A DNA stretch of 64,000 nt from Candidatus Omnitrophota bacterium (GTDB lineage Bacteria; Omnitrophota; Gorgyraeia; Zapsychrales; Fredricksoniimonadaceae). The number at the start of each line of letters is the position of its first letter. The first letter of the stretch is position 1. The stretch lies in assembly GCA_903860135.1 (NCBI GenBank), contig CAIOPG010000004.1, positions 185,687 through 249,686 on the forward strand. The letters are read 5' to 3'. The notes under the pieces are model-generated. The model saw nothing but the letters and a program-made list of their open reading frames with translations. It did no database searches and was not told the DNA's origin. The position numbers and the translations under genes are program-made. Below are positions 31,636-64,000 of the stretch, piece by piece.

Positions 31636-31647
31636 AGTTACCCTGGC

Positions 31648-36938: not shown

Positions 36939-37679
36939 ATGCTTTTGACGGATATTATTTTTCTTATCTTCCTTGGTGCCTGCGCCGGTCTTGGCGCCTG
37001 GCGCGGTTTTCTGCGCGCCCTGATCGGTCCCGCGGCTTTCTTAATAGCCTGCGCGCTCAGCGGTGCCTATTCCGCCCTGACACATAAAATCTTTGAAAGC
37101 CTCCTGGTCCTGCTCTTGGGGCCGCCGATCATTGGCTGGGGTCTGAAAGCCTTAGTGCGCCGAAAGGATCAGGATCAACCGCTGCCGCCGCTCGCCTGCG
37201 TCAATCGTGTTTTCGGTGCCATCATCGGCCTGACCTGGGGCGGCGTCATGGGGCTTGTGCTCATCGCCATCGTCGTGATCCTGCCGCTGGACAGCTTCGG
37301 CCTCGGCGACATCACCCGGGATGTCCACGCTTCCGCCACCCTCGCCCTGTTCAGGCACCCGCTCGAAGCCTGGCGGCTGATCCCGCCAAAAGAAATAAAC
37401 GCATGCCTCGACGGCCTGTGCGGTATGCCGAAAAAAACCCAGACCTCACTCGCCCAAGACCAGGATATCCAGGAGCTGGCCCAGGATCCCCGCCTGCAAA
37501 AACTCCTGCTTGATCCGGTTGTACAAAAAGCCATCACAGATAAAGACTTCCCCGCCCTCCTGTCCAACCCGCAGATCCTCGACATCGTCCGCGACCCCGC
37601 GCTCGTGGCCAAAATGCTGAAAGTGTTCCCCAAGATCAGGGCCGCCCAGCAGGCAGCATCAACCTCATCATCCCTGTAA
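36939..37679 (+). CDS. cvpA: CvpA family membrane protein
   Basis: N-terminal TM helices LLTDIIFLIFLGACAGLGAWRGFLRALIG... typical of CvpA (colicin V production). 246 aa. Converges on and overlaps the giant ORF 3' end. Confidence 0.7.
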   Translation: MLLTDIIFLIFLGACAGLGAWRGFLRALIGPAAFLIACALSGAYSALTHKIFESLLVLLLGPPIIGWGLKALVRRKDQDQPLPPLACVNRVFGAIIGLTWGGVMGLVLIAIVVILPLDSFGLGDITRDVHASATLALFRHPLEAWRLIPPKEINACLDGLCGMPKKTQTSLAQDQDIQELAQDPRLQKLLLDPVVQKAITDKDFPALLSNPQILDIVRDPALVAKMLKVFPKIRAAQQAASTSSSL

Positions 37680-40600
37680 AAGGCGTATACTGTGAATCCT
37701 CAATCAACGCATGCGTAAAATCAGCACCCTCCAGCTGAGCTCCTGTAAAATCACAACGGGATAGCTGTGCGCTGGAAAAATCAGCACCTCTCAAATCTGC
37801 ACCGCTGAAATTAACATTTTCAAAAATACCATGACTGAAATTGCCCTTAAAAGCATTGATGCCGCTGAAGTCAGAATCCACAACATTAGCTTGTGGCATG
37901 AAAATACGCGAAAAGTCTGCCCCTATGGCACTCACCCTGTTCATGCGGATAAATCGCAATGATGCCTCCTTGAAATTCGCTCGCTGCAAACTTACATCAA
38001 CAAGCCGTGCATCCATCAAGTTTGTTCTATAGAATTTTGCACCACTTAAATCAACATCATTCAATACAGGCAGATCACAGCTGATAATACTGTAATCCAT
38101 GCCTTTTAAAAGACTGATAAGCTTATTGCCAACAAGAGCACGTTCATTGATACGCAACAAAGGTTTGTTATCCTTCGGCATATTGACAATGTTCTCAAGC
38201 CTTTCTTTCACAGAAGAATTATTTAAAAAAGAGATGCCCACTTCGTTTTTGATAACAGAAAGTAATTGCCCCCCCCTAAAAGGACGGTACAAATACATAT
38301 CTATTTTACCTGCTTTCGGAGATCCATACCGAACAATCAGGCCTTCCAGGCGCCTTTTCCCTTGGATAACATCATATAAGATAGGAGCATCAAGGATCAC
38401 AGCTGTTCTTCGACCGGATAAACGCTCGACAGATTTCTTTAATACACAAACATCCCTTGAAAAATCACTCCCGTAAGTTGCAAGAGGGATAGCCTCCTCA
38501 GCATGAGAAGCTAAATAAAAATTAATCCTGTCAAACGGCATCCGAACCAATTCCCAATCATGCTTGTCCCAGGCCTGCCGAAAGTACGATTCAGCAAAAG
38601 GGCAAACCGGCTCAGTGATCCCCCAGCGCGTTTCAACCATGGGGACATCATCCTTCAACTCCTTGTTCTTCTCGTGCACCGCGGCGGCTTCCTGATGCGC
38701 GCGCCGGAGCGTTGTGGCCGCGTTGACTGCCGCTATCCCAACAGCGACGAGCGCCAGACTGCTGGCAAGGATAACAGCGGCGGGCACACCTGTCATGCCC
38801 GGGAGCATCAGGAAAAAAAGCGGCAGGGCGTGGCAAGCCAGAGGCTGCGGCCGCGGGGGGCGGGCGGCCATCTTGATCAGCTTGATATGCGCCGGTGCAC
38901 CCCAGTGTGTAACACTCACGCCACCGGCACTCAACCAGCGCAAGGGCTGTGCAGGATCCGCTGCCTGTTTCTGGGCAAGCAAAGGAAGAATATGATCTCG
39001 CAACAACCGATAAAAACCGTCGGCTTCAAACAAGCCCGGGATGTTCGTCTCTGCCGGAGCTGACTCCTGATACGCCACGGTCTTCAAGAACAAGCGCCCC
39101 AGCAATCCCGGCATCCGGCCACCCCCTGCACGCACCCGGGCCAACCAAGCCCGCACCTGCCCCAGCATGGCCTTGACAGCCGCCGCGCCACCAGGCATAT
39201 CAAACCAAGAAAACGGGATATCTTCGAGCGTGAACAGCAGGGGGGCCAGGCGGGGACGAATCAAGCGTTGCCGGGACGACAAGGTGTTCTTTGTCATCCA
39301 CACCTCCTGATCTTCCGGCCCCACACGTACTGCCTGAACCCAAATAACGCCCAGCGCGATCAACACAACCCCGACGGCCAACCAAGGCCATGCGCTGACA
39401 CCGATCGTAGCCACCAAAGAACCCAAGGAACCAGAGGATATTAAAAAAAGAAGCGGCCAGGCATGAACGGGTAGTTGCCGTGTCGCTGTCATTGATGAAG
39501 AAACATCTCTTTTTAACCCATAAGCCATGGGATTCCGCATAACATTCAGCCTCAAGGGCAAAGGCAAAGCAGATGCTAAGGCTACAACTTTTCTCGAATC
39601 GACGGATGTGCGCAAACCAGCGACCCAATTTTTGAATTCACCCCATCCATGAATGTTCGGAAAATAAAGCCCCGTCCCAACACAGCCTGACCATTTATAA
39701 TCATGTTTGCCGTACGGCACCATAAGTACAATATCCCCTTTTTGTGTATCTGCCAGCATGCTGCGATAAAAAGGCTGTTCACCGCGCATCTTGGCATTAT
39801 CACCCGGCCCTTTGTCAATCATGATCACACTGCTTGAAATACCTCGCCTCGTATGCCGCCATTGCTGCGACCAGGAATAATAATCTTCACTTGTCAATTC
39901 AACAGAAAACGTGCGTTGCGCATCAATGCTTCTGAGTTTGGTTAAACACTGCTGACGAAGATCTTCCATATTTTGCACAAATTCATACCCTGTTGAAATA
40001 AAATGGAATGTCGTTAAATTCGGGAAGTGTTGCGCCAACAAAACAGCATTAAGCGGATCACTATTCCCGGCGGCAGGATAAATCAGTGTTGTAAATGCGT
40101 GCAGATCAACGCCACGCGCCCTTAATAAATCCATACAATTCAACGCAACCTTATGCGCTGCACCAGAGACACGCTCGAACAATCCCTTGGCAAGCTGTTC
40201 CCCCAATTTAATATTATGTTCACGCGCCCGCTGAATTTCTTCCTCAGCCGTGACTGGCTTGGCTGATTTTCCAATAACAACCCCGGCGATCAACAGGGCG
40301 ACCCCACCTGCTACCAACGCAGCCGCAGAGATGGACGCTGTGGCACCAACTGCCGCCGCCGGCACAGCCGCCATGACCGGAACTGCCGTCAATAATATGC
40401 CGAGGATCAAAAGCACGGAAGATTTCGCCGCAAACTTCTTCAATCCCAACGCACCGACCAACAGGCTCAGTCCGGCAATCAAGCCACCCACCAACAGCCC
40501 ATCCTGGTTAACCATCGGGCTGACCCCAAAAGACCGCGCCTGAATCGCAGTCGCAGTCGCATCCGCCGGAGTTCCAAATTTGCCCTGGCCAGGGTTATCA

Positions 40601-43600
40601 TAAACAACGCCGGCTTTCGTGCGCGGCACAGGCAACGTCACCCGCGTCGCATCCGCCGGAGCCCCCTGCTTGCCCTGCCCCACCATCTCAGGCGTGACCA
40701 CAGCCACCGGTGCCGCCACCGGAACGGCCGTCACTGCCGGGATAGCCATATCAACCTTAACCGCAGCCTGCACGCGCTCAGCCGCCTCGGCGGAACCTCC
40801 CGCCAACAGCATCCCCAGGATCATCGCCGCAGTGGTATTCTTCTTGCGATTATTTCTGTTTGTGATCTTTTCAATACCGAAATGCGCAATAACAATGCAA
40901 CAGACCGTCCACATCATATTCTCGAAAGAAGCAATAAAGAAACACATGAACGTTGTTGTTGCTACTGTCTTTATCCAAAGAGCACCTCGGCCTTCACCCT
41001 TACCTTTAATTCCCAACATATATGCAATTAATATAACAATAGCAAAATCCAAAGCAAGATCCAAAGCAAGATCCAATATTTCCAACTCATATTCCAAACG
41101 TGCAACGGCTTCATCCGTTTCCTCTTGACGGCTTCTATCGTCTACATCCCATGATGACGCCATGGCAGTCGGTTGGACAGCACGCGCCTCAGCTTGAACC
41201 GGAGCCGCTGTCGATAGCATGCCAAGGACCAAAAGTATGGAAGATTTCGCCGCAAACTTCTTCAATCCCAACGCACCGACCAACAGGCTCAGTCCGGCAA
41301 TCAAGCCACCCACCAACAGCCCCTCCTGGTTAACCATCGGGCTGACCCCAAAAGACCGCGCCTGAATCGCAGTCGCAGTCGCAGTCGCCGGAGTTCCAAA
41401 TTTGCCCTGGCCAGGGTTATCATAAACAACGCCGGCTTTCGTGCGCGGCATAGGCAGCATCACCCGCGTCTTATCCGCCGGAGCTCCCTGCTTGCCCTGA
41501 CCAGGTGCGTCATAAACAAAAGGAGCGTGTACCTTCGGCAGGGGCACAACAACCCGCGTCGCATCGGCCGGCGCGTAGGCAACTGGCGCTGGTGTTTGCT
41601 GCAATACGGCGCGTGGCATTGTTGCCGGCATCGCGCCTTCTTGAATAACCCGAACCTGATACCCTATACCTGTCATGACCGACAAGCCCGCGATGGCCAA
41701 CCACAACTTGACCTGCCGGATTGCTTTCGCCATCGCTGTCGGTGATTCAGCAACAACGACAGGCACCGCCATTTTCTTCTTGTTTCTATCCCGTCTCTGT
41801 TCCGACTGTGCTTTACGCAGCAAGAAAGATGGAACAGCTACTCGACCATTCCTGTTTACATAAAATGTTTGCCGGCTCTGATTCTTACGCCCGATCACAC
41901 TGCCCATCACAACCAGCAACCCGCTGATCATGTCCAGCGCACGGTTATGCCCCTGCGCGACCGGTATAACCATATCAACCTTAACCGCAGCCTGCACGCG
42001 CTCAGCCGCCTCGGCGGAACCTCCCGCCAACAGCATCGCCAGGATCATCGCCGCAGTGGTATTCTTCTTGCGATTATTTCTGTTTGTTATCTTTTCAATA
42101 CCGAAATGCGCAATAACAATGCAACAGACCGTGCACATCATATTCTCGAAAGAAGCAATAAAGAAACACATGAACGTTGTTGTTGCTACTGTCTTTATCC
42201 AAAGAGCACCTCTGCCTTCACCCTTACCTTTAATTCCCAACATATATGCAATTAATATAACAATAGCAAAATACAATATTTCCGACTCATATTCTAAGAT
42301 AAAACTTATCTTCTGACGAAACTCATAACGCGCGACTTCCTCATTCGTCTCTTCTTGAAATTTCCTATCGCCCTCATCCTCCCTATACCTCAACGCATCC
42401 GCCGGTGCGCCATTGATACCCTGGCCAGGATTTTCGCCGATAACGACGGGCGACGCTACCGCAGGCAGTTGAACGGCACGCGCCTCGGCCTGAACCGGCG
42501 CCGCTGTCAACAACATCCCCAGTCCCAGCAGGATGAAGAATCTCGCCGCGAACTTCTTCACCGCCCTACCGGCGGCAATCAAGACCAACAGCACGGCCAC
42601 ACCACCCACGATTTCCAACCCCCTGTGATCCTCAACAACAGGATTTTGCGACGAAACCCACCTTTCCTGGTGCCTTCTTTCCTGGCCAACCATATCAACA
42701 CGCGTCTTGTCCGCCGGAGCTGATACCTGCAAGGCATCCATTACCGCTGGCTGTGCCGCAAACCACAATTCAACGGCTGAATCCATAAGCCGCTCGTCCT
42801 TTGGAGTTGATACAACGATCTTGTTCACATCAGAAGATATTACCGCAGGCTTTGCCGTGACAGAGCCGGGAAATAACAGGGAAGCAACAACAATAACGGG
42901 GAGGACAACAGAAGTAACCTTGCGGAAGAAATTTGAAACCCGTAAAACCCCGACGGGCGGGCTGGCGTCGGCCATGCGGCTGGCCTTCACATCCGGGCCG
43001 GCGTGCCATAACCAGGCGATGACAGCACCAACAGCAACCAGCACCAGCACCCCACCCACAAACGCCAGCACCGGCGGGCTCATCAGCGCGGAGAGGCTCC
43101 AGGTCGACGGTATCATCATTAGAAATAGCGGCAAGGCAAGGCCGGGCATGGCGGTAGAAGAAGGCGGCGCCGTCTTCGGATGAGATTCCCGTGAACGCAC
43201 ATACTTCACAACCGTCCCAACAGCCTGGCGTGCAATGTTAAGGGTCTTTGAAAAAATACTGTTATTCTTGCCATGCTGGCTGCCCTTATCCTTGTTATTC
43301 GATTGATCACCCTTATTGTTCTTGTCATTCTTATTCCCACGACGTAAAATCTTTCTCTCCTTGAAAACGCCCTTTATCTGCGCCGCCAGCACCGTTCTGG
43401 TCATGCCGATCATCTCGCGCACCGAGCGGAAACCGAAATAGCCCGTACCGGCGATCCCTAACACAAATATCCAATTCAACCAGATCGGCATCGCCAACGC
43501 CGTCCCTGACAAGAAAATACCAAACACAAGGAATGTTATGACCAGACCAGCAAATGTTCTGATGGCCCAACGATCACCGAACATTTCAGCCAGGCGCCAC

Positions 43601-58600: not shown

Positions 58601-61600
58601 TTCAACACAAACGGTTCGTTGGTTCCAAACACATCCTTGACATACGGAATATTACCAAGGATTGACTTCAATAAACTTGTCGGAACTTTAATGATCGTCA
58701 GGCCTGTGGGCACTACGCGCTTACGATCACCCGTGTTAATAACATTGCCGTCAATAATATAACTGAACCCGTTATCCGTACGGCTGACAACATAACTTTC
58801 TTCGGCATCAGGGCCTCTAAAACTACCCGCAAAATTAATCGCCTGATCAATAACCCCGCCCACAGCCCAAACCCTGTTAAGCGTGGTCGTGAAAGGATCA
58901 CTCTTGCGTGTAGCCGCAGCAATAAGATTCGACAGGGACGTACTCCCCGGCACGGTTGGCCCGACACTCAAAAGAGACCCGAGACTATACGCGCCGCTGG
59001 GCATCTGATTATCAAGAATTACCCGCGCGTCTAATATCGACTGATCATCGCTCGCCCCGTTCTGCCTGGCAACGTTCAAGGCTTCCTTCTGCAGGGCTGC
59101 TGGCGTAAGATACTGCCCTAGCCATAGATTCTTCACAACACCAACAGCAGCTTCTCCGGCTTGTCTCGTCAAGGAAGAATTCTCCGGGGCATTGCCCCTC
59201 AACCGCGCAATTGTTTCCTCCAACCGTTCCTTTTCTCTCTTCTGTTTCGCCAATTCCTTCGCCGGATTATTGCTGAGATCATTCCCCCTATACCAATTCT
59301 CCACCGCTGTCAAAACTGTTCCCGGCAAACCCTGTGTCTTGTTCAGGCGGATCCTGGCAATGCTCACGGGCTTGCCATTCTGGCGGATCTCAACCGTATA
59401 CCCGTCCTTGGCCGTGGCCGAAGCAAATACCTCACCCGCCGTCGCCGCCTTGACCATATTAATATCCGTCAAGCCCTTGTAAACAACCGTAACATGACCC
59501 GAAGCGATCTCCACAACGCCCTTGCCCATCATCCGCGGCGTACCCGTCAGAATGGAGCGCACATGCGCCACTGAAGCCCTGCGCTCCTGCTGTCTAACCC
59601 CACGTTCGAACGTTACCCCCTTGATATGTGTCACCGAAGAACCTACAAGCTGTATGGACTCGGCCACCGGATCAATCTTGCCCTTGGGCAATGCGTACTG
59701 CGTCACCGGTGTCGGCAGCGCTTCAGACGCTGGCTTAAAGCCCTTGCGCAAGGAGTCTGGCATAACAGCCGCTTTAGACGAATCCAGCCCACCAGCCGTA
59801 GTGTCGAGCACGATCGGTGTGCTCGATGCCTGAACCTTAACAACCGGCTCTTTCTGCTGCGCAGAACAGCCCGCCAGCGCCAGCATCGCCACCAGCGATA
59901 AAAACCGCACGCTGCCGCTCATCCATCCATTCTTCTTGCCCCTCAACAGCGCTGGCACAAAGGCGCCGAGCATGAGGAGCGTCGCTAAACCATTGCCAGC
60001 CATACCAGCCAGTGTGAAATCGTTTGTGGAGGCCGGATTAAGAACAGGAACGGAGGGATGTCCTGTTAATCCAACCTCCACGCCCGCGACAGATTTGATT
60101 GCCGCAGGTTGTTGGGTGACGGACCCGAAATGGGTTGTTTGTATCAAATGATGTGTGAGAGCCGGGCCAAGAACAGTGGCGGAGGGATGCCCTGTTGACC
60201 CGACTCCCACGCCTGTGACAGACATATCTGCCTCAGGTATTTGGGCGACGAACCCGAAATTTATTGTGTTAAATGTTTGATGGTGTGTGATGAATTGATG
60301 ATGAGGATACGCATAAGCGCGCGCGGGAACTACTGTCTCAGCAACAAAAGCTGTTTCATCAGAAACAGTTTTACCGGCTCTCCAGGTTTCCCCTTCAGCC
60401 GTCAAATCATTCCTTACTGTGAATCTTTGCTCAACAAAATGAATCACTGGCTGTTCCGCGTCCTGTTGACGCCCAACAGCCACAAATTCTCTTGCTGATA
60501 AAGCTATAAGACCATAATTATTACGCGCATCCCGATTATCGTCAAACCGTGATTCACTAAACGTTGACGAAACCCTGGAAGCCGTAACAACTGACCATAT
60601 CAAAGAATAACTTCCTGTCGTATATACCACTTCTTCAGGGGCAGATACTTCAGGTATATTCCTTGTTAAGCTACCAACAGTTCCTTCTATCTTGTTCGCA
60701 GTAGAATTACCGAAACCTCGACCATTTGTCCTGCTAGAAGGATAAACACCCGTATACGTCTTAATTACGGTTGTTGCTTTTTCTGACGCACCCTTAATCC
60801 CAAGAACAACCAGCTCTTGCTGACGGGCATTCGTCACGATCCATTCAGGTTTAGTCAACCCATAATTCGGCTGATACACCTGATGAACCACCAATTCCAT
60901 ATCCTGCGTGTTAACAGGTAACCCTGAAACAGGTGCAGGTACGTTCTTGCTTTCTTCAGCCAACCAGCTTGCGCCAGTCGGGATATTTTCGTTCTTTCCG
61001 CTATAGTTCAACGCAGAAACAGAGCAATTGTTCGTTTCTACAGTAAGTGCTGCCTTTGAAACATTGCTGCTAACAACGTCACTACGATTTCCCTGAGCGC
61101 GATTGTAAGCCTTTGAACCGTCAGCCAGGAAATTAGCCGGTTCAACGCTTGTGCTGTTAATGCCATATTTAACCGATGCCCCTAACGCACGCTGGACATT
61201 CACGTTTGCTGCATTGTACAACATGTTCATGCTACGTAAACCATCTACAGTAAGCGCTACATCATTTGTCCAATCAGTCTTTGCGATCTTCTGTCCAGAG
61301 ATTGAACCTTCTGAAACAGAGCCGTTGTTAATGCCATCGATCTTAACCTGTATCCGGCTATTCTTTACGACCGTTACCACGTGAGTCGGACGAACCGTGG
61401 CAGTGCCGTTATGGCTGTTTAACCCTTCACCACTCTGTCCATCGTTTGCGACATCTTGCGCGGGCAGAGCTAGCGCATAGAAGCCGTTTTTCTCGTTACC
61501 TACGACCTCATCGACCTGTACCCCTAACGCATTCCGGGCACCCTCGTTCGTTACAAGAACAGTATTCGTTGCATTTCCTGCATTCCCTTGTCCTAACCAC

Positions 61601-63909
61601 TCTGCCCTGTATCCCGGGAAGGATACGGCAGAGGCATAACGGCCGCCATCGCCAAAGATTGAAGCTAATAATTCATCACTCATACCTTTCAAGCGTTCAC
61701 CAAACGCTACGACATCAGCCATTGTAATGGGACCGCTCACCCATGATAAAGAATGATCCGAACCAACAGGAGCCCCGCCACCGCCCCCCATATGTATGGC
61801 TGTAGGCGCCGGAGGAACGCCACCACCATTGCCGGGCAAAGCACTCCCTGGTGTGCCTGGACGTTCGGCATTTGATTGAACGGGTATTGCCTTCTCTCTT
61901 TCAGGGATTAATTTGAATTTATTTACAGGCATCTTTTGTTCGGCTGAATGACCTATGACCTGTGCAGGTATGGCCTTGTTATTAATCGGACGCGGATCCG
62001 TACTATCTGAAATTCTCAGGGCTGTCGCCAGACCCAATGTTTCCAGAATAACCGTACCCACAAGTATTTGGTGCAAATTATTGCTGACTTGCCGCCAGGT
62101 TCTTGTGATCAACGGACGCAATCCACGGGTCATTTCACGGTATCTAGCCAGAACTTCTGCCGCCTGCCTGGATTGCTCATCTGAAGATTCAGCCCAGTTG
62201 GCTTGATCTTGCACGAAACTCAAAACAATACTAGCGACATTGATAGCTTCCGTCTTCAAGCCACCATTGTTGATCGTCTCACGCAAGGTCATTAGAATAC
62301 GATTATCGGCATCAGCGACTTCGTCCCTGTTCTGTTCATACCAAACAAGGAAGGCGGCGGCTGTCTGGACAATCTGCGTTTCGTTCAACCCTTCAGCACG
62401 TGCAATAGTTACCGTAAATTTATCAACGTCGGTTGGTTGTTTAATTTTGGTGAGATCAATCCCAATGTTCAAGGTTACATGCTGTTTACCTGCCAGCAAT
62501 GTTTCAGTATGGACATTAATGCCATTTTCAGAAACGGTTACATTTTTATATTTACCTGTTTTCTTATCTTGGACAAAAGCGACACGCACATCCGAAGAAT
62601 TACCCTTAAAGATCAAAAGAGCAGAACCATATTTATTGTTGGTCATATGAACAACCTGATCGCCAGATTGAATGTCCAATTCAGGAATAGTTTCCTTAAC
62701 CCTCAAATGGACATTAAACCCGTTATTCCCATCAGGAAGACGCTCTTGAACAGTTTCTATTGCTTTGCCGTCTGCCAAAGTAAAGGCTTCACCGGCGGGC
62801 AAGGTTGCTTGCTGGAGTCGATCCTGTTCTTCGTTATATAAAGTAACTGTGTCACGTACCTCATTGCTAGAAATACTTCTGTTCGAACCGCACACAACCG
62901 TGATTGCTTCTGTGGCAACAACGTTCATATCCGAAGGCACGGCGCCATTTTTGAACTGATCGGCCATTTTTCTTAATGATGGATTCTCGCTATTTCGAAG
63001 AGCTTCTGCCAAACCAGGCTGATTGTCAATGACGCTGACAAGAAGCGCAGCAAAATGTGCGCGCTTCTGTGCTGTTAAATATGCTGGCAAACCAGTCAGT
63101 ATGACATCGGTGGCCTGTTCAACAATATAATGGCCCCCTTTATAATTAACCTTATATCCGACAACCAGTTGAACGGGTTCTGTCCCTGCCTGCAATACAG
63201 CCAGCGGTGCGTAAATAATACCGTCTTTGACAACCACTGATTGCCTTTCAGGATTTTGTTGATCCTGATAGAACGCCGCGCGCAACTCATCGGGATCCTC
63301 TTTCTTAAAGACAAGGATAATGTCAAAAGTCTTGGAACCATTTTTGTCCAAAAGAGCATCTTTGGTATTTCCAACGATGACGGTTTTTTCACCATAGAGC
63401 TTATGGCTAACGGGTTGAAGCATGATGCGGTCGCCCTGCTCAATACCCAGCGCCGGGATAGTCTGATCAGCCGTGAACTCTTCATATTTCTTGCCATGGG
63501 TATCTGTTTGAATAGTACGCGTGTATGGGATATTGATGCCATCGACTTGCAGGGCATCCGGATCTTGCCTAACACCCTCAAGATCGATGCGCTCAGCTTT
63601 GCCGTTCTTAAAGGCGATATACGCCACCGGGTGCTGCTCATTGAACGGAACATTGCGTCCTTTTTCATCCGTCTGTTGCGTCGTAGATTTCTTATAGACC
63701 GTCTGCGTCTGCCGATCAAGCACTTCTCCCGGCTGTAACACGACGGATCCCTGACCAAACACGGACAGCAACTTGCTATCTCCCTGCTCCAAATAACGCG
63801 CTTGTTCCTGCAAGCGGGATATGACCGCGCCCAGGCTTTGTTGGATGATCTCCACATTATTAGTCACATGAACAGCCTGAACAACGCGCAACGCTGTCAA
63901 CTCATCCAT
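37636..63909 (-). CDS. Giant multi-domain membrane protein, at least 8757 aa, 5' end probably outside the window; no family assignable
   Basis: Single uninterrupted 26,274-nt ORF. The frame stays open upstream of the ATG at 63909 to position 64000 (translates ...RQIHIWRKREQLLIADQPTGRAIIAHAAEE-MDEL). Contains repeats, an internal lipobox, OMP-like beta-rich region, more than 20 predicted TM helices and pentapeptide repeats (itemised as sub-features). Confidence 0.8.
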   Translation of the reverse strand: MDELTALRVVQAVHVTNNVEIIQQSLGAVISRLQEQARYLEQGDSKLLSVFGQGSVVLQPGEVLDRQTQTVYKKSTTQQTDEKGRNVPFNEQHPVAYIAFKNGKAERIDLEGVRQDPDALQVDGINIPYTRTIQTDTHGKKYEEFTADQTIPALGIEQGDRIMLQPVSHKLYGEKTVIVGNTKDALLDKNGSKTFDIILVFKKEDPDELRAAFYQDQQNPERQSVVVKDGIIYAPLAVLQAGTEPVQLVVGYKVNYKGGHYIVEQATDVILTGLPAYLTAQKRAHFAALLVSVIDNQPGLAEALRNSENPSLRKMADQFKNGAVPSDMNVVATEAITVVCGSNRSISSNEVRDTVTLYNEEQDRLQQATLPAGEAFTLADGKAIETVQERLPDGNNGFNVHLRVKETIPELDIQSGDQVVHMTNNKYGSALLIFKGNSSDVRVAFVQDKKTGKYKNVTVSENGINVHTETLLAGKQHVTLNIGIDLTKIKQPTDVDKFTVTIARAEGLNETQIVQTAAAFLVWYEQNRDEVADADNRILMTLRETINNGGLKTEAINVASIVLSFVQDQANWAESSDEQSRQAAEVLARYREMTRGLRPLITRTWRQVSNNLHQILVGTVILETLGLATALRISDSTDPRPINNKAIPAQVIGHSAEQKMPVNKFKLIPEREKAIPVQSNAERPGTPGSALPGNGGGVPPAPTAIHMGGGGGAPVGSDHSLSWVSGPITMADVVAFGERLKGMSDELLASIFGDGGRYASAVSFPGYRAEWLGQGNAGNATNTVLVTNEGARNALGVQVDEVVGNEKNGFYALALPAQDVANDGQSGEGLNSHNGTATVRPTHVVTVVKNSRIQVKIDGINNGSVSEGSISGQKIAKTDWTNDVALTVDGLRSMNMLYNAANVNVQRALGASVKYGINSTSVEPANFLADGSKAYNRAQGNRSDVVSSNVSKAALTVETNNCSVSALNYSGKNENIPTGASWLAEESKNVPAPVSGLPVNTQDMELVVHQVYQPNYGLTKPEWIVTNARQQELVVLGIKGASEKATTVIKTYTGVYPSSRTNGRGFGNSTANKIEGTVGSLTRNIPEVSAPEEVVYTTGSYSLIWSVVTASRVSSTFSESRFDDNRDARNNYGLIALSAREFVAVGRQQDAEQPVIHFVEQRFTVRNDLTAEGETWRAGKTVSDETAFVAETVVPARAYAYPHHQFITHHQTFNTINFGFVAQIPEADMSVTGVGVGSTGHPSATVLGPALTHHLIQTTHFGSVTQQPAAIKSVAGVEVGLTGHPSVPVLNPASTNDFTLAGMAGNGLATLLMLGAFVPALLRGKKNGWMSGSVRFLSLVAMLALAGCSAQQKEPVVKVQASSTPIVLDTTAGGLDSSKAAVMPDSLRKGFKPASEALPTPVTQYALPKGKIDPVAESIQLVGSSVTHIKGVTFERGVRQQERRASVAHVRSILTGTPRMMGKGVVEIASGHVTVVYKGLTDINMVKAATAGEVFASATAKDGYTVEIRQNGKPVSIARIRLNKTQGLPGTVLTAVENWYRGNDLSNNPAKELAKQKREKERLEETIARLRGNAPENSSLTRQAGEAAVGVVKNLWLGQYLTPAALQKEALNVARQNGASDDQSILDARVILDNQMPSGAYSLGSLLSVGPTVPGSTSLSNLIAAATRKSDPFTTTLNRVWAVGGVIDQAINFAGSFRGPDAEESYVVSRTDNGFSYIIDGNVINTGDRKRVVPTGLTIIKVPTSLLKSILGNIPYVKDVFGTNEPFVLKRHVWAAVVGDMEKLINTTADNETDENITWVRSRPVQGTSVTKKSKTLPGDQFLIYYKIDRNKLYSTQGKEGVTEMFQVFRFEGSTTDGLYAPLEDFKAAWLKSVGLFQHEGEVAPIISRRQREQNAAMARSLQAGVENGRENRGIAVNPSAGVKFGDSYLKDDTKHRFDIQAVPTFRDGRYQWVPALVDLDRPILTPEGKPLMWPEHRDDKDVLVPAKPVFAVVLSSAKETLSSLAFALGGTFDRDVHTGVTFVFRLKQQPTLEHPESVYELVERRPGTAPDAVGTFKVEPQHVDKGKTFGDKVPSPIYLTSGSAYELLPAGVSLPGRQTKDTIEVYIDLSKALPGLSLARIILADRIIYLYTQADMKQYQVEPLSEDNKLKFQTYLGSRGLNPEEYITQGNIVTDGPGIKPGEVGLMEYSSNDKKLVKKFKENPDAKGVTEDSLGNLTAVPEVPMLVTIPTDYESNRLRVDAAVEQALSGVDFKRFGKGYGTLTELGRQIESSNLQQYALAGQAQSAVRKAEKTGAGLSFDADLPVNQARIDQLQYLHSSIGLSRMETAPLYNTIPGVFDDKALDWAAKQVKSFADGATVMRRYAEITPLLWGRLYFTPETVTTNEQAVAYIQSTYIDPIAPAILESQQNIAALSLQNTHNYDTVYSSPADMEKARGYYLGKDGNVGAIEEAKNSVVFWRQQLAKAEGNPTLIGILEKALSLAQRKQINIERAWGRVVQDAKDMVLSDPAVNPDAANFLQGQIDKIDADILKAQNNLASLQTKARENDYSTVFLSQAEITAAHDYYVGADGTGGYIKSLEDGRTYWNTERDKANAAGDTARVQFLESCLANTEITLTAARANLVRVMQDRTDMTRYDPSVDNDAAAYIQSQVSLIDAEISTNQGYIDNLNLMESQHFSTVLFSPTQIEAARNYYLGSNGTGGYIQSLENGLAYWNAELNKATAAGDTVWAGFLQKAVDETAAKRLVAVADLARVNQDAVDLQSGGFDPYAVVDQKIAIINDRIAALNQSKDVYRSAPTTQYFNYNPVSLTNVFNQKIANLQADIAVLENSKALYRNAPTTQYFGYSPVNLDAVVSEKTAIETENIAILNETKTLFDSSIIVSVQDFKNIPLQDPAEYIPYYTGARHTEIMSEVAYLQKGKNLTPEATATVQALINNVETMDRVAIAHGSELDFDRPIMLLAQDALSFNETMSTLWAENLRLSQKLRTGFDDLSIFTPDVAAKMKKNKEFADEVMNNLRNAVANGAGASRAVNDALGSRNNARQQVMDAYAPAQAIEAQMAAAEKQRLEVSARYTAEAAVYSQRIKEELEKALQVIKGLHLAPAAEASAISLVKGEFAARIKAAAYVVDEAGVVVVLTPEVSAMGSSTNNIHNGTAVSFGSTTRPLFNGATWTLGAGSRQPYDATAAPVSLTAATVNWLTYNPTTIFNSSFNLTQYRQSNYLILDAHDPTSDAGHTTVNTNTTVLDYAVAFKRDVADNGSNKVSVYLGWDSFVAWADQNNARTYGTNVQAAVSNAILNGGKITVEVGRTQGTANTTAEFTYWDAFTHDRLRDAQGNVVPSEKINLSAAQAEQFARAVYQYEIVKGLKVSVGVERRQNAGVTSFAGLALNGTLMGAESSASLVYSHDGRLGINGTVGHLNGFYSDGNYGAGLSAKVGGLQTFAGWKASGGVDIGIGTNLGITPGQSLVPGFSLTRGVTLDVVKNKNKDLKLPAGTPRDATTIQNLDMVVPYNSVDPQPINREITVTGDVSSEGQTSILMTRDGQVVHLSPDVLETLKAMYDGQGRAIVQGILPVAVSKEEYAYLTRKDLKLAIPLKYWKGTDQALARMGVIYDRETKRFALKVNGILLPMGAGDAMVLPAGTYTLGGKTITSAYPIILEPMKGALEESIAQLKKRPYNESSYVVVLKDKASKIFSSKEQVLKEVPKYAEYVLSIDHMDPLGGNTIEYMSLAQRLVRMDVGQPIIRCELNDPEEGSALMNSAYLVEFPRQDSAKAQWKDKVFVTLNQVQAYWHDLVDVLHVEKGDKLGLVGDGTTRNLGAFYLMDDRKGSKIVEGLKVYGFDDYIAGRRTPINYVVERGKIHFKNVELKVSDILNPSNASTNLFATAIALTDKETTSKGNYDKSFLGEKLISWYPDTYRDGKPVSGMVEVLFPDRTSRMYNFSQARGIDFSHEVSYTPTRQVLTLSPEVIRKAVLTHPSVKAAYTYNPKDGKYHFARGTLLQPNRFPGSIFPLDFGGIWGWKMEYTRGDITYTYVLKQDRNDPNRFVDARLIEVAQDSLTLTLEQARQQVFNIKGNINGREVTLLEQFDQTIAMLKQQQGITGDVHIVESRLKIIGNGTHLVRKLKEDPKNHIVALQSAPLVEDATFVVNTQFDKQMASEAYGIMTRAETTGHQGDVYFEKTGGRIAPEEFYRQQQLDKVIGFAERQKDLAFLGYKNLIRIERRTLLGSLNDTTKKVDLNLVRYIPDNDPLPVDVIKIENNAYRFMEYRSVQKGYFDRKMALPFMVASGEVAVQPETNRVVRKTEFEQAFAHCYSYSVLYEWRQEHEFNAKAQIKILYWFDSGKIEEFYPKEHFVQVTYDGKPAYTMHLGGTLTNLDNTLEYLKSPERSRTTLDIHQYSTFMTRYFELADGTIVREVRQVPVTQDNTEILSRLSVNNKVVAVFAMDPINKTINLLNGERFYGEVYKNSNLDLFSNSLTGRALMSLGLNDKSVMSINGKYISVRQKIWTPLQQAAEKQEPSVTSSVARNPSADMPIYNDVVNQHWLLILTLPILAAILLATLTSSVFPSVRRLRDYWARHYGTVKLNHEMPLDEIVEVFERRGGLSHEEAVALAKAKIAFDLANGLIVPGKKADVMHFLETYDLITDDNREDVESQYSLTDKINAIETGWKSAYRDGVLSYEAYQENRSKLRQAMDNIEEHGGLERLEKQILDAYTVRERLEAGGMDSEQVEQLVAMYEKKVISFDENARDYMQAVRSEEAARSRALWIKGAFDKVRRVIKANTTIKARLEGRPLVSLMVRLASILDKVEKAWHLESLLQDPLTTGDLLTMIRVRAAKGVRHAVGIMDLLERVLPLDDAGKRAWLKAALVEVEKRRNKNLQVTIAEALDAAFERALEPVLRAFLAKHNLDVLVAEAARMPGSAVTEPFTHRLSFDAVLLKLAKKQIDAYAATKKVSNNTIKQIMDAKKTQFDEAGIPIPGFRELFKAAEAERQRQMASNERAVFEPIYANLIYLVSTTLKFKNQLARIYSITEVKHKSDITRKYTQEKSLEVISIQELYKVIEVRAGNEGAKDHSIFYRLRTPEAREAVHLLEHHYAGFEEALAQHAEALSLNKALYSFNDVVKMFIREKVLRNRIDEFIVYHGLSFATETHKEDYYRQMLAEFEFQVAQRPSRMPLTYAQMNFIGNPTTVFKASEPVTFEAYLFFKYMQSPRNETEHLSFGGDGFIFQEVLFLTHWFMDKRRNAYPDANLNPQAMKEYHDFIRQNVRFWRYLFYMNNLKHVTNEMQGIYNWVADSDKHGIKKQGNITLTHGFYDEKILYFFQNLSKRLIRTNISREASLEAYNMDVFEEFEAMLAQVAETSAEREAMVLEGCELLKARQGTFKQAGFEAAAGARGAIIYDAMTKIKVNGKAPIRRVANDEAKFELSWDVINKNANVFGLTVEEVEGLAAFYEKTVKAKYAEEDMEKDNSRRDDEDRGVLARLQQSIKVVLAKKDTDTADYGVFARLQQRINAVSANKGKNTAANLYMETLLPCFKPFLIAYWHMLELDSPIAFRKEIEVEKKKGMFHLYKRIYGLFGGLLGKFKRSATGRKHQTTFQDTLGVHSPVKRAVLAALMLTGLAGSFWLLSVTGSVGLLVFGLFWSISTSAVLFSYMPVKGEKTFWVFVSTTYSLVEGILAWLLFGKWYTAMMLAGTFGMFNTAALWAIITIVMLKPVIVVYRVIKSNYQTRSEIWNPVVRSRHNLFFSLFRPYWDRDNRKYFGRVNRVYQRVENVYGYILPNWVTFAEHIDGLGIELYRSGRINARERQLLRRAVYLGTDFPRLEGEQAREYLYMNMNSPAYRRVEVDTYAKHKQMVTNVQTYIEQVSHTPEAFLGKGTMSLVIDAPQERALAKMIKMHYARKGMGAMERLNMVGKVLTLIKNGSAELYSDFTRTGVKRILTENKIDEDLVKKIDAELAKIEILQGSITASMFGYLARTHGVEYANMLAKLRLQGFAALADDLALADEHFDFMGVLKKAYATSPEAVLAAVNLMGPMMDEIDPANRAVMASFAKAVITVHLLAGMSNADTDYRHAVMLADQEFDSLQEAYERWVAASKVGALTGTQEQIHLKELFITDTQFPHYKEITKSKIMQMLMMTTMWQNADPARSNIRLLNDERARALAEEKGFADATHKWAFMPVAEKIRAGQKAGASAVNRAFAAYVAQKFPNYDQHLFFMDGIERFVFADKMEFAALVLGFRATHYDLFLEGGVIKEYNAMIEWAHVFESAHASNAHVPIYEGDEIISTLKNGGIALNIWLHNNVCAYQDTQVRVMPGSNPYRLNAAEFMGRHPEAVVINPAFLIWGSSGFAYPGRRVYKLMQQVFSQVAQMGFKGMALFYGKAMINPAAGANLLMTPVEDSGAYLIQKEINPEVYATTQLAWVWEWLRPCLHAESVFWTEVRYVFNVSYMLLSSMMYKVFTNKHIGADFKLSVLENFFHYLVVAFGFILSLAIPTMMAWSGMAYLMPIWGWLLASIILMNAVNLFNLLRHIYRYGSFWYGFYLFVQDVYRAFPYCVSMLWSFVEGALMVSHFKFSFIPTSRTALFALFDTFTRFSKGLLKFGAHTEKRLKKSLTALATVLLVAGFVGFFLPASILAVGHTWMPWFALAAAGILFAMAGVLHTMTRVHLVGIPMVGIMGTVIILAGVVPFLFSTAIGAVSIVPYILLGIALLTGTSVFGTFVDVKISWGAALGSLVRYFLEVSAVETGKTIDPKTIVALNKFDRFVKYGYGRYQLSGWRLAEMFGDRWAIRTFAGLVITFLVFGIFLSGTALAMPIWLNWIFVLGIAGTGYFGFRSVREMIGMTRTVLAAQIKGVFKERKILRRGNKNDKNNKGDQSNNKDKGSQHGKNNSIFSKTLNIARQAVGTVVKYVRSRESHPKTAPPSSTAMPGLALPLFLMMIPSTWSLSALMSPPVLAFVGGVLVLVAVGAVIAWLWHAGPDVKASRMADASPPVGVLRVSNFFRKVTSVVLPVIVVASLLFPGSVTAKPAVISSDVNKIVVSTPKDERLMDSAVELWFAAQPAVMDALQVSAPADKTRVDMVGQERRHQERWVSSQNPVVEDHRGLEIVGGVAVLLVLIAAGRAVKKFAARFFILLGLGMLLTAAPVQAEARAVQLPAVASPVVIGENPGQGINGAPADALRYREDEGDRKFQEETNEEVARYEFRQKISFILEYESEILYFAIVILIAYMLGIKGKGEGRGALWIKTVATTTFMCFFIASFENMMCTVCCIVIAHFGIEKITNRNNRKKNTTAAMILAMLLAGGSAEAAERVQAAVKVDMVIPVAQGHNRALDMISGLLVVMGSVIGRKNQSRQTFYVNRNGRVAVPSFLLRKAQSEQRRDRNKKKMAVPVVVAESPTAMAKAIRQVKLWLAIAGLSVMTGIGYQVRVIQEGAMPATMPRAVLQQTPAPVAYAPADATRVVVPLPKVHAPFVYDAPGQGKQGAPADKTRVMLPMPRTKAGVVYDNPGQGKFGTPATATATAIQARSFGVSPMVNQEGLLVGGLIAGLSLLVGALGLKKFAAKSSILLVLGMLSTAAPVQAEARAVQPTAMASSWDVDDRSRQEETDEAVARLEYELEILDLALDLALDFAIVILIAYMLGIKGKGEGRGALWIKTVATTTFMCFFIASFENMMWTVCCIVIAHFGIEKITNRNNRKKNTTAAMILGMLLAGGSAEAAERVQAAVKVDMAIPAVTAVPVAAPVAVVTPEMVGQGKQGAPADATRVTLPVPRTKAGVVYDNPGQGKFGTPADATATAIQARSFGVSPMVNQDGLLVGGLIAGLSLLVGALGLKKFAAKSSVLLILGILLTAVPVMAAVPAAAVGATASISAAALVAGGVALLIAGVVIGKSAKPVTAEEEIQRAREHNIKLGEQLAKGLFERVSGAAHKVALNCMDLLRARGVDLHAFTTLIYPAAGNSDPLNAVLLAQHFPNLTTFHFISTGYEFVQNMEDLRQQCLTKLRSIDAQRTFSVELTSEDYYSWSQQWRHTRRGISSSVIMIDKGPGDNAKMRGEQPFYRSMLADTQKGDIVLMVPYGKHDYKWSGCVGTGLYFPNIHGWGEFKNWVAGLRTSVDSRKVVALASALPLPLRLNVMRNPMAYGLKRDVSSSMTATRQLPVHAWPLLFLISSGSLGSLVATIGVSAWPWLAVGVVLIALGVIWVQAVRVGPEDQEVWMTKNTLSSRQRLIRPRLAPLLFTLEDIPFSWFDMPGGAAAVKAMLGQVRAWLARVRAGGGRMPGLLGRLFLKTVAYQESAPAETNIPGLFEADGFYRLLRDHILPLLAQKQAADPAQPLRWLSAGGVSVTHWGAPAHIKLIKMAARPPRPQPLACHALPLFFLMLPGMTGVPAAVILASSLALVAVGIAAVNAATTLRRAHQEAAAVHEKNKELKDDVPMVETRWGITEPVCPFAESYFRQAWDKHDWELVRMPFDRINFYLASHAEEAIPLATYGSDFSRDVCVLKKSVERLSGRRTAVILDAPILYDVIQGKRRLEGLIVRYGSPKAGKIDMYLYRPFRGGQLLSVIKNEVGISFLNNSSVKERLENIVNMPKDNKPLLRINERALVGNKLISLLKGMDYSIISCDLPVLNDVDLSGAKFYRTNLMDARLVDVSLQRANFKEASLRFIRMNRVSAIGADFSRIFMPQANVVDSDFSGINAFKGNFSHGIFENVNFSGADLRGADFSSAQLSRCDFTGAQLEGADFTHALIEDSQYTPFTGMMRLMLPAGRP
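37639..38090 (-). other. C-terminal pentapeptide-repeat domain of giant protein
   Basis: Clean 5-residue periodicity: ADFSR IFMPQ ANVVD SDFSG INAFK GNFSH GIFEN VNFSG ADLRG ADFSS AQLSR CDFTG AQLEG ADFTH. Confidence 0.7.
40420..42650 (-). repeat. Intragenic tandem duplication (two units of ~1260 and ~820 bp plus a diverged partial copy), each with a ~250-bp AT-rich core
   Basis: Near-identical DNA at 42060-42310 vs 40860-41110 (AT-rich cores encoding FAIVILIAYMLGIKGKGEGRGALWIKTVATTTFMCFFIASFENMM.TVCCIVIAHFGIEKITNRNNRKK). Near-identical DNA also at 41241-41470 vs 40423-40650 (GQGKQGAPAD...LLVGGLIAGLSLLVGALGLKKFAAKSS). Confidence 0.75.
41047..41076. repeat. 12-bp microsatellite (atccaaagcaag x2.5) inside the second AT-rich core
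   Basis: Encodes LDLALDLALD. Absent from the first copy (42060-42310), so copy number differs between the duplicated units. Confidence 0.6.
42900..44800 (-). other. Polytopic membrane domain II of giant protein (about 15 TM helices) with K/N-rich low-complexity linker
   Basis: Consecutive hydrophobic helices, e.g. LVVAFGFILSLAIPTMMAWSGMAYLMPIWGWLLASIILMNAV and ILAGVVPFLFSTAIGAVSIVPYILLGIALLTG. Linker RRGNKNDKNNKGDQSNNKDKGSQHGKNNS at about 43250-43350. Confidence 0.6.
46700..47140 (-). other. Polytopic membrane domain I of giant protein (4-5 TM helices)
   Basis: LAALMLTGLAGSFWLLSVTGSVGLLVFGLFWSISTSAVLF ... TAMMLAGTFGMFNTAALWAIITIVMLKPVIVVY. Confidence 0.55.
53450..54130 (-). other. OMP-like beta-barrel-type segment of giant protein
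   Basis: Alternating hydrophobic/polar, G/Y/W/F-rich strands: SVYLGWDSFVAWADQ..., LKVSVGVERRQNAGVTSFAGLALNGTLMGAESSASLVYSHDGRLGINGTVGHLNGFYSDGNYGAGLSAKVGGLQTFAGWKASGGVDIGIGTNLGI. Resembles autotransporter/porin beta-domains. Fold not verified. Confidence 0.4.
55690..56640 (-). repeat. Three tandem ~381-bp (127-aa) repeats inside giant gene, followed by two ~45-aa repeats (55330-55570)
   Basis: Units ARGYYLGKDGNVGAIEEAK.., AHDYYVGADGTGGYIKSLEDGRTYWN.., ARNYYLGSNGTGGYIQSLENGLAYWN.. start at about 56605, 56225 and 55842. Then YRSAPTTQYFNYNPVSL.. and YRNAPTTQYFGYSPVNL... Confidence 0.7.
59860..59990 (-). other. Internal TM hairpin with lipoprotein-type signal (lipobox LAGC) at about residue 1330 of giant protein
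   Basis: LATLLMLGAFVPALLRGKKNGW-MSGSVRFLSLVAMLALAGCSAQQKEP. In-frame ATG at about 59922 preceded by a positively charged n-region. Confidence 0.5.
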
Positions 63910-64000
63910 TTCCTCGGCGGCATGGGCAATGATCGCCCGCCCTGTTGGTTGATCTGCTATTAATAACTGTTCTCTTTCTCCAAATGTGAATTTGTCTTCG

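Follow-up and report, generated by a model that had tools for sequence, protein, structure and literature searches.

A nearly orphan giant gene of an uncultured Omnitrophota bacterium, probably encoding a multi-pass membrane-anchored envelope protein, in a conserved slot with replaced content

The giant genes of Omnitrophota rank with the longest genes known from any organism. The class to which the gene described here is closest has been characterised in two preprints. West-Roberts et al. 2023 (bioRxiv 10.1101/2023.11.21.568195) reported that Omnitrophota giants are followed by pilZ genes and then by transporters with solute-binding proteins (SBPs) and by glycoside hydrolases (GHs). Nielsen & Lui 2026 (bioRxiv 10.64898/2026.06.07.730766) clustered 5,761 proteins of at least 10,000 amino acids (aa) and found 80% of the clusters to be singletons at 30% identity; 137 of 916 catalogued proteins (15%) were without any domain hit, the mean number of transmembrane (TM) segments per protein of at least 10,000 aa was 22, 94% of the proteins were membrane-targeted, and GH2 enzymes constituted the dominant catalytic flank. 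The published hypothesis for the function of these proteins is attachment to prey or host together with degradation of the cell wall. Here, we analysed a stretch of 64,000 nucleotides (nt) from a Candidatus Omnitrophota genome (GenBank assembly GCA_903860135.1, contig CAIOPG010000004.1, positions 185,687 to 249,686), hereafter the window, which contains a single giant open reading frame (ORF). An ORF of such size is already precedented by the thousands of Omnitrophota proteins of at least 10,000 aa that have been catalogued (10.64898/2026.06.07.730766), and the gene is a nearly orphan addition to an already described class of giant membrane-anchored proteins of this phylum. What is visible in the window is probably the 3' half of a genuine giant gene of the multi-pass membrane-anchored type with a role in the cell envelope. 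The additions made by the present analysis are modest, namely slot-level turnover, a shared module with a predicted location outside the cytoplasm, an internal lipobox that is conserved, and a pentapeptide-repeat C-terminus.

The giant ORF lies on the minus strand, an orientation left unstated in the first-pass annotation of the window, and comprises 8,787 sense codons followed by a stop codon at 37636-37638 (37636..63999). The frame is open at the window edge, 63999, so that the N-terminal approx. 7,977 codons lie beyond the window. Residues are numbered here within the window, with residue 1 at the window edge, and all segments of the protein discussed below are on the minus strand. The earlier annotation had counted 8757 codons from 63909: the end of the stop codon at 37636 stands, while 63909 is merely the first ATG and not the start. 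Its wider claim, that of one very long coding gene continuing past the window, was borne out by the lack of stops, by coding statistics and by a gene call elsewhere.

The giant ORF is a genuine gene, that is, one continuous frame with coding statistics. From the base composition of the strand stops are expected at 5.1% of codons, and the probability of meeting none over 8,787 codons is about 1e-202. The next-longest stop-free frame anywhere in the window has 911 codons, and in this 26.4-kb stretch each of the five remaining frames contains 178-638 stops, corresponding to one stop per 14-49 codons. When GC content is taken separately for the three codon positions, the ORF shows a pattern typical of coding DNA (GC1 > GC3 > GC2), except in the first 1,000-codon block, where GC3 is the lowest. 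Compared with seven neighbouring genes, codon frequencies gave r=0.85 in frame; a shift of the frame by one or two bases lowered the correlation to -0.03 and 0.02. The reference set consisted of the housekeeping genes mnmG, purH and mnmE and of the genes for an Nramp transporter, the GH94, SBP and GH2 proteins, and was grouped as three housekeeping genes plus four from the sugar-utilisation block. Both GC and GC3 of the giant gene (0.45-0.58) are below those of the seven reference neighbours (GC3 0.64), and the minimum of GC falls at the N-terminus of the portion in the window; these values are compatible with a faster turnover or with a foreign origin of modules. Reassignment of stop codons was considered and rejected, neighbouring genes being of normal length with standard stops. 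Mobile-element or phage origin was rejected as well, PHROGs being without meaningful matches and the flanks consisting of housekeeping genes. A check for internal starts by Shine-Dalgarno motifs, done by eye only on the upstream regions of 26 neighbour genes, revealed the motif to be weak or variable.

The length of the whole gene was derived from a public 189,021-bp contig of the same gene order (ENA analysis ERZ1426836, also in NCBI), which was found by look-up of the neighbouring SBP and is present in two samples. The giant gene is called there as a 16,764-residue product, hence a full gene of 16,764 codons and about 50 kb; as the figure of 16,764 residues rests on this gene call, so does the estimate that some 52% of the gene, the C-terminal part, lies in the window. 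Over 9,175 nt, an independent assembly (ERZ27313599 k141_666940, locus L086) matches the window at 100% identity; this stretch includes the last 2,880 nt of the giant ORF, all of them open. Many contigs of the same population end inside the giant gene. That the frame is an artefact, with several genes joined or repeats collapsed by short-read assembly, is very unlikely. The many contigs breaking inside the gene speak for it, as do repeats of about 300 nt at 94-98% identity, which could mislead assemblers and make the copy number in 40.3-42.6 kb uncertain; a chimera, however, would not hold one frame over 26 kb with uniform coding statistics. Moreover, the sequence of the 3' end and its flank is the same to the base in at least two assemblies, the 189-kb contig was seen in two samples, giant ORFs sit in the same slot in six other genomes, and such genes have been confirmed in the phylum by long-read complete genomes.

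The surroundings of the gene correspond to those published for the class. It is directly trailed by two PilZ-domain genes on the minus strand (35741..36509; 117 and 124 aa; Pfam PilZ E=3.6e-12 and 2e-14), and then by SBP transporter genes and glycoside hydrolases. The latter form a sugar-utilisation block on the same strand (26542..35654), delineated from Pfam, gene calls and synteny at 52-86% identity, in the order GH94-like glycan phosphorylase, SBP, two ABC permeases, GH2-like hydrolase and TPR protein; beyond the TPR gene follow two unannotated ORFs and then mnmG. PilZ domains are receptors of cyclic-di-GMP. The best relatives of the GH94-like neighbour are metagenome-assembled genomes (MAGs) of Omnitrophota, at 74-75% identity, which upholds the link to this phylum that the first-pass annotation had ventured as speculation. 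The majority of the best 80 GH94 loci also belong to Omnitrophota, and the whole block is syntenic with those MAGs. The host is thus a member of Omnitrophota, uncultured and from freshwater. The names of samples, BUCK21-1_SAMEA6872856 among them, point to the stratified-lake metagenomes of Buck et al. as the probable origin; this dataset is listed among the sources of West-Roberts et al. 2023 (bioRxiv 10.1101/2023.11.21.568195).

With the giants of West-Roberts et al. (Archaeovorin and the Dockerin-type) the window gene shares the phylum, a huge ORF, many TM segments, unannotatable stretches and the same pilZ, SBP and GH context, whereas its 16,764 aa, as given by the gene call, place it below their working set of more than 30,000 aa. 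Most of those giants possess a divergent SecA DEAD-like domain, and a C39 or S8 peptidase near the N-terminus is another feature of the class; neither was detected in the visible C-terminal 8,787 aa. The Archaeovorin set of glycosyltransferase, methyltransferase, GH, peptidase, SAM-methylase and NUDIX domains has no counterpart in the visible half (400-aa tiles, E<=1), the N-terminal half being outside the window; similarly, the dockerin and TSP3 repeats of the Dockerin-type were not found in the visible half, with no match to PF00404 or PF18884. Conversely, there is no mention of a pentapeptide-repeat C-terminus or of an internal lipobox in West-Roberts 2023 or Nielsen & Lui 2026. In relation to the catalogue of Nielsen & Lui, the length class of at least 10,000 aa would be matched by the 16,764-aa gene call, 8,787 codons of which were seen directly, and the likeness extends to the TM density (about one segment per 260 residues here, about one per 370-450 in that catalogue), the nearby GH2, the almost complete lack of sequence relatives and the scant domain annotation. 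The protein, having one Pfam family (pentapeptide), does not strictly belong to the Pfam-dark fraction. A further difference is that syntenic genomes were compared here slot by slot, which revealed a replaced 3' end, a kept flank and one shared module of 2.7 thousand residues. The earlier statement that no family could be assigned therefore needs to be divided: it is true for sequence families, but the gene has the exact published context of giant genes and, by the gene call, would fall into the class of at least 10,000 aa.

Two small genes on the plus strand converge on the giant gene between its stop and the PilZ genes. The first encodes a CvpA-like membrane protein of 246 aa (36939-37679; Colicin_V E=5e-6, below cut-off) and overlaps with its 3' end the end of the giant ORF by 44 nt; the second is a 62-aa membrane ORF (36748-36936, gene call). 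In the related genomes examined this pair is kept beside the giant ORF at 26-71% identity (tblastn), and it finds no mention in the published descriptions of the context that were consulted.

Related loci were fetched through the GH94 gene. In five of them (L005, L007, L008, L009 and L039) a stop-free frame of 2,476-2,641 codons is still open where the 10-kb flank begins, and a sixth (L006, from MAG ELA167) has 816 open codons from the contig start in the same slot. All six frames end just before the same block of CvpA-like, 62-aa, PilZ, PilZ and GH94 genes. Identities to the window genes, determined over L005-L011, L013, L015 and L039, amount to 26-58% for the CvpA-like protein, 47-80% for PilZ, 57-75% for GH94, 59-68% for SBP, 52-77% for GH2 and 55-86% for TPR, where L011 was omitted as giving only a short partial match of 26%. 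The visible ends of the giants show no such similarity: a tblastn search with all 8,787 residues against all 84 loci returned as the sole match a 100%-identical fragment of the same organism, and when the terminal 816-2,700 residues of the seven giants were each compared with all others by BLASTP, nothing was better than E=0.035.

The recognisable cargo also differs from locus to locus. The giant of L007 (2-7924) contains GT9, guanylate kinase and HMGL-like domains, that of L039 (3-7430) a small methyltransferase and an Asp/Glu racemase, and that of L005 no recognisable domain. The enzyme domains in the giants of L007 and L039 are of cytoplasmic type, and the cargo in one slot differs completely between genomes. 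In the giant frame of L008 (1-7446, Omnitrophota MAG nDJH6bin28) sigma-70 regions 2, 3 and 4 were found at residues approx. 868-1679 (E=6e-25, 2e-8 and 2e-15); a whole sigma-factor-like unit within a membrane giant would be odd. From these comparisons the slot appears to be fixed while the giant in it is almost wholly swapped, the flanks being 26-86% identical across related loci. This turnover agrees with the published 80% of singleton clusters among Omnitrophota proteins of at least 10,000 aa at 30% identity.

Only one module of the visible protein, residues 1173-3878 (52366..60483), has a detectable homologue, being collinear at 30-37% identity with a contig of ELA167. An exhaustive HMMER search with residues 3100-4299 against 1.84 billion representatives returned two proteins, P0002 and P0003. 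P0002 (4,584 aa, E=1.8e-85; locus L085) is the translation of the whole 13,751-bp contig JBAXBM010000034.1 of the Omnitrophota MAG ELA167 (GCA_037141995.1), all of it open. By GH94 identity this MAG, from which L006 also derives, is one of the two closest relatives, and its PilZ-GH94 block is situated on another contig. BLASTP aligned P0002 with window residues 1173-2568 (37%) and 2883-3878 (30%), most of residues ~2570-2970 being absent from it, with 59-91 gapped positions per 100 residues across ~2573-2972. Beyond residue ~3880 P0002 and the window protein are unrelated, even in profile-sequence comparison of the ELA167 and P0003 modules with residues 3881-8787, and the 3' end of the ELA167 giant on L006 is unrelated to that of the window as well.

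The second protein, P0003 (3,784 aa), has only residues 3694-3972 in common with the window, while its next approx. 1,900 residues are common with P0002. On its contig (ERZ1426682, 21,074 bp) this ORF meets another of 2,606 aa at nt 11475, and the latter ends in weak pentapeptide repeats followed by a 63-aa ORF on the opposite strand, as in the window; a pentapeptide C-terminus may therefore recur in a sub-lineage. Because P0002, P0003 and the window share different stretches, the giants are best described as mosaics of modules. Outside these two proteins, a scan of JGI metagenomes that started from the alignment of the shared module, and for which only two patterns were usable, gave no match, and neither did a PDB profile search with residues 1173-3878.

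Within the shared module, residues 1334-1378 (59866..60000) were read from the sequence as a TM hairpin with an internal lipoprotein-type signal, conserved in ELA167. The signal combines RGKKNGW as the positively charged loop with the hydrophobic run FLSLVAMLA and the lipobox L-A-G-C, whose cysteine is Cys1378; its ELA167 counterpart reads KGKRSSW...LLSLVGLLSLAAC, and the hairpin and motif align as ...ALLRGKKNGWMSGSVRFLSLVAMLALAGC/SAQQ in the window with ...ALVKGKRSSWMSYGFQLLSLVGLLSLAAC/KNDA in ELA167. In comparison with bacterial lipoproteins, the substrates of signal peptidase II, the motif (positive n-region, hydrophobic h-region, lipobox [LVI][ASTVI][GAS]C) is present in full and conserved at Cys1378, but it is internal, about 9,300 residues into the 16,764-aa product, whereas theirs is N-terminal; cysteine makes up 0.3% of residues.

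Shortly after the lipobox follows the best-conserved block, residues 1450-1590 (59230..59652), with 49% identity in the alignment with ELA167 and the motif GY.VEIRQNGKPV. Possibly it is a degenerate LytM/M23-like domain without catalytic histidines. The ELA167 copy gave a Peptidase_M23 match at E=8e-4 and 19.9 bits, below the cut-off of 28.7; the window block gave no Peptidase_M23 match, and the zinc-ligand histidines of HxxxD and HxH are replaced in both copies. A pairwise test of window residues ~1480-1555 against the M23 domain of ELA167 was not significant (z ~1.2), and a PDB profile search was negative. In addition, ELA167 carries a canonical Peptidase_M23 (E=2e-22) about 240 residues upstream of its lipobox, for which the window has no equivalent.

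A simple Kyte-Doolittle scan (19-mer mean >=1.45) detected 34 strongly hydrophobic 19-mers in the visible protein, two of them isolated, at 645-663 and 4573-4591. About 30 TM segments are predicted, which are distributed over the hairpin 1334-1378, two bundles and a series of hairpins at 6954-8425. The two polytopic membrane domains noticed in the first pass correspond to the bundles and are accompanied by many TM hairpins. The first bundle, residues 5638-5745 (46765..47088), has four predicted TM helices by hydropathy. The second, at ~6505-6850 and with at least seven predicted helices, follows a helical soluble stretch of about 750 aa, both being parts of residues 5746-6850 (43450..46764; hydropathy, composition).

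From the positive-inside rule we infer a self-consistent topology, in which residues 1-644 would lie inside, 664-1333 and 1379-4572 outside, and 4592-5637, 5746-6494 and the C-terminal domains inside the cytoplasm, the hairpin 1334-1378 exposing only its short positive loop to the cytoplasm. Residues 1-644 (62068..63999) are soluble and predicted to be cytoplasmic by this rule; they show a weak internal repeat (179-299 versus 436-525), and for residues 1-700 no relatives were found in GTDB genomes or JGI metagenomes. Residues 664-1333 (60001..62010), between the TM segments 645-663 and 1334-1352, are predicted to be outside the cytoplasm and contain 37.8% Ser/Thr/Asn/Gly/Gln and 7.5% Lys/Arg. 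Farther downstream, residues 4573-5637 (47089..50283) comprise a single TM segment at 4573-4591 (hydropathy 2.36, with four Lys/Arg right after it) and a highly charged helical stretch of 1,046 aa, predicted to be cytoplasmic, with 14.7% Lys/Arg and 14.1% Asp/Glu. The predicted inside blocks 4592-5637 and 5746-6494 have a helical composition, with 11-15% Lys/Arg and 21-23% Ser/Thr/Asn/Gly/Gln, so the large soluble helical domains of the earlier annotation are consistent with composition.

The repeats noted in that annotation could be specified further. The repeat array consists of three tandem units of ~122 aa with helical composition at residues 2390-2815 (55555..56832; 31-35% mutual identity); the gap in ELA167 begins within the last repeats of this array and runs past it. 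The tandem duplication, residues 6973-7890, belongs to a region of duplicated TM hairpins with Pro/Ala/Gly-rich loops (6954-7910; 40270..43140) that was delimited by protein and DNA repeats. Its protein copies are 54-83% identical, while the DNA copies (window 40376-42276) amount to 316 nt at 97.8% identity with a spacing of 1224 nt and 302 nt at 93.7% with a spacing of 822 nt, both spacings being multiples of 3 and hence in frame. Such near-identical DNA repeats point to a duplication of very recent date, and short-read assemblies may not give their copy number reliably. Several hydrophobic segments of the same region end in signal-peptidase-I-like A-x-A motifs, TAAPVQA/EARAV twice and GGSAEA/AERV twice.

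The internal lipobox and these A-x-A ends raise the alternative that the gene encodes a polyprotein or fused operon, in which two enzymes, signal peptidase II acting at Cys1378 and signal peptidase I at the A-x-A sites, would cut one chain into ordinary-sized lipoproteins, periplasmic and membrane proteins, the giant itself having originated by read-through fusion of genes for secreted proteins. As to function it is compatible with an envelope protein and differs on the nature of the mature molecule; we regard it as conceivable, if doubtful. In its favour, a canonical signal of the signal-peptidase-II type lies ~9,300 residues into the chain and is kept in a homologue of ~37% identity in spite of the scarcity of cysteine, the motifs APVQA/EA and SAEA/AE recur after hydrophobic segments, and at the related locus of P0003 the giant is split into two ORFs that abut. 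West-Roberts et al. (10.1101/2023.11.21.568195) considered that C39 or S8 peptidase domains might cleave such proteins, and a signal-peptidase-II domain inside a giant of 147 thousand residues was reported by Nielsen & Lui (10.64898/2026.06.07.730766). However, internal signal-anchors of bacterial polytopic proteins are normally uncleaved, A-x-A is common in Ala-rich sequence, and the lipobox could be merely a conserved transmembrane end. The combined proposal of a membrane polyprotein, inserted during translation and yielding products in fixed stoichiometry, whose slot serves as a diversification cassette where modules are exchanged, duplicated or lost from one close lineage to another between fixed flanks, appears rather unlikely. 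To our knowledge, internal processing by signal peptidases II and I of a chromosomal bacterial protein on such a scale is undescribed.

The C-terminal part of the giant begins with residues 7915-8640 (38080..40257), three soluble stretches without assigned family which are split by TM hairpins at 8183-8224 and 8394-8425. The only recognised domain is a pentapeptide-repeat beta-helix at the C-terminus, residues ~8629-8772 (37684..38115), with Pfam PF00805 at E=2.6e-18 (65.6 bits versus a cut-off of 20.2), PF13599 at E=4e-13, further matches in NCBIfam and pentapeptide proteins of the PDB down to E=2e-12; here the first-pass annotation was right. The likeness to pentapeptide proteins (HetL, Qnr, MfpA, Np275/276) is confined to ~140 C-terminal residues with A(D/N)LxX-type tandem repeats, for which a right-handed quadrilateral beta-helix is predicted. 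Those proteins are stand-alone and of ~200 aa, whereas the repeats form here a terminal appendage of a membrane protein of 16.8 thousand residues. No Qnr- or HetL-type function can be transferred, because the specific NCBIfam models all score far below their cut-offs.

Apart from pentapeptide repeats, searches of Pfam and NCBIfam with whole halves, of Pfam and PHROGs with 400-aa tiles (residues 1-8600) and of PDB sequences with both halves yielded nothing, in line with the earlier observation that no catalytic motif could be recognised: no catalytic domain was detected in the visible part by Pfam, NCBIfam, PHROGs or PDB. In a clustered protein database residues 1-2400 and 5601-6900 were without match, and the only relative of residues 7900-8640 was a 99%-identical strain fragment of 634 aa. 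The 16,764-aa protein was never returned by this database for its own segments, though the 634-aa fragment was. Null homology results for giant proteins are weak, because very long proteins seem to be missing from clustered databases. AlphaFold2 gave a mean pLDDT (predicted local distance difference test) of 41 for residues 7915-8787, the pentapeptide helix alone being confident (pLDDT 74-85), and of 32 for residues 1379-2330, modelled from a two-sequence alignment; outside the pentapeptide helix the models are unusable, because the alignment depth is near nil.

One feature of the first-pass annotation was not retained. The segment described as resembling an outer-membrane protein, residues 3131-3530 (53410..54609), is indeed rich in Ser/Thr/Asn/Gly/Gln and 23-36% identical to ELA167, but no family could be assigned to it, nothing in Pfam or PDB identifies an outer-membrane barrel, and no outer-membrane protein, autotransporter or porin match was obtained in Pfam, NCBIfam and PDB. 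This bears on a further alternative, namely that the protein is a member of a classical giant adhesin or toxin family (RTX/MARTX, LapA/BAP-type, RHS/YD, autotransporter or two-partner secretion) too diverged to be recognised. Size, repeats, the Ser/Thr/Asn/Gly/Gln-rich segments and the first impression of an outer-membrane protein would suit such a family. On the other hand, no RTX, Ig-like, cadherin, RHS, haemagglutinin, autotransporter or secretin-type match was found in the visible part with Pfam and NCBIfam (whole halves), Pfam and PHROGs (400-aa tiles, residues 1-8600) and PDB (both halves and a profile of residues 1173-3878), and the classical families are secreted passengers with at most terminal anchors, without ~30 TM segments or cytoplasmic blocks of a thousand residues; we consider this alternative extremely unlikely. 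The homology of all segments to a described adhesin or toxin family, which the first-pass annotation had named as evidence against its own view, was likewise not encountered.

Returning to the reading as a multi-pass membrane-anchored envelope giant, the following mechanism is proposed. With moderate confidence, the chain would be threaded through the inner membrane by approx. 30 or more helices, with large soluble blocks alternating between its faces. By the positive-inside rule, residues 664-1333 and the block of 3.2 thousand residues at 1379-4572 would face the periplasm or cell surface; the latter, in which the only part kept in the closest relative is found, starts at the lipoprotein-type signal, and Cys1378 may serve as its lipid anchor. 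The pentapeptide domain would be cytoplasmic, as would the helical blocks 4592-5637 and 5746-6494. With low to moderate confidence, the exposed module would act on a cell envelope, in view of the M23 upstream in ELA167, the possible degenerate LytM block and the adjacent glycan hydrolases and importer; most likely it would contact or remodel either the bacterium's own wall or the envelope of host or prey, and at the same level of confidence the adjacent PilZ proteins would probably couple the giant to cyclic-di-GMP. The adjacent transporter and hydrolases would take up released glycans, and rapid turnover of modules together with in-frame duplication would diversify the protein between lineages. 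The function in attachment or on the cell wall proposed here matches the published hypothesis.

A number of observations weigh against this reading. The functional link is based on gene neighbourhood and on a peptidase of a relative, which is absent at the equivalent place here, and the visible half is without hydrolase, dockerin, SecA-like or adhesin domain (Pfam, whole and tiles). The West-Roberts class is usually preceded by a type II/IV secretion-like locus; here the upstream flank begins ~24 kb beyond the window, and any such locus is outside view. Structure lends no support to function, with AlphaFold mean pLDDT of 32 and 41. As the simple hydropathy scan was done without the N-terminus, in/out parity could be inverted, and TM predictions on giants are unreliable according to West-Roberts et al. 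2023 (10.1101/2023.11.21.568195). Translation as one chain is not guaranteed, given that gene calling splits the related giant of P0003 into adjoining ORFs of 3,784 aa and 2,606 aa. Finally, on a 29-kb contig of ERZ1426828, which starts inside the gene, the giant was called as a cut 304-aa product and a separate 634-aa product. The latter (P0001) is 99% identical to the last 634 residues of the window, with five substitutions, and starts at Met8154, and the preceding 304-aa product stops around residue 8139 (window ~39540-39584). By these gene calls, the ERZ1426828 variant or its assembly would have a stop or frameshift near residue 8139, where the window and L086 have none; either the allele is truly truncated or, with the contig end ~900 nt away, the assembly is in error.

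The interrupted variant is also the starting point for viewing the locus as decaying or phase-variable, often interrupted and partly non-functional, or expressed as fragments from internal starts. To the 304-aa and 634-aa pieces that replace the continuous end may be added the complete sequence turnover between syntenic giants, the GC3 of 0.45-0.58 as against 0.64 in the reference neighbours, and near-identical internal DNA repeats that could drive rearrangement. Nevertheless, a stretch of 26 kb (50 kb by gene call) free of stops requires selection, codon usage is housekeeping-like over the whole length, the ELA167 homologue is likewise open for 13.7 kb, and only ~900 nt separate the interruption from a contig end, a place prone to assembly errors. 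Decay or phase variation is, on this balance, distinctly unlikely, although some strains may show it.

The locus leaves the general picture of Omnitrophota giants unchanged and gives a clean comparative case for it. If the internal signal is indeed processed, the giants would be polyproteins and not single machines, and their size would have to be read differently. As far as annotation is concerned, such ORFs are real, usually split across contigs, and clustered protein databases lack part of them.

Elsewhere the window consists of ordinary bacterial chromosome, with mutS, mutL and genes for a chorismate-binding enzyme, Fic, MnmE, a Mur ligase and PurH, further for VIT, Nramp, MgtE-like and HhH-GPD glycosylase proteins and MnmG. 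A GspD-like secretin with N0, Secretin_N and a partial Secretin domain is encoded at 173-1702 on the minus strand beside mutL and mutS; it is located ~36 kb downstream of the stop of the giant, which is not the position described for the class. A Fic/DUF4172 protein is encoded at 11782-12912 (minus strand), and the ~1.1 kb before its gene (10618-11781) contain no ORF of at least 150 aa and no Rfam or tRNA match. At 6200-9558 on the plus strand, opposite to nearly all other genes, two ORFs of 334 and 785 aa with overlapping stops and without Pfam match were found; with GC of 0.49-0.52 and a very high AT skew of 0.22-0.34, this segment may be an inserted island.

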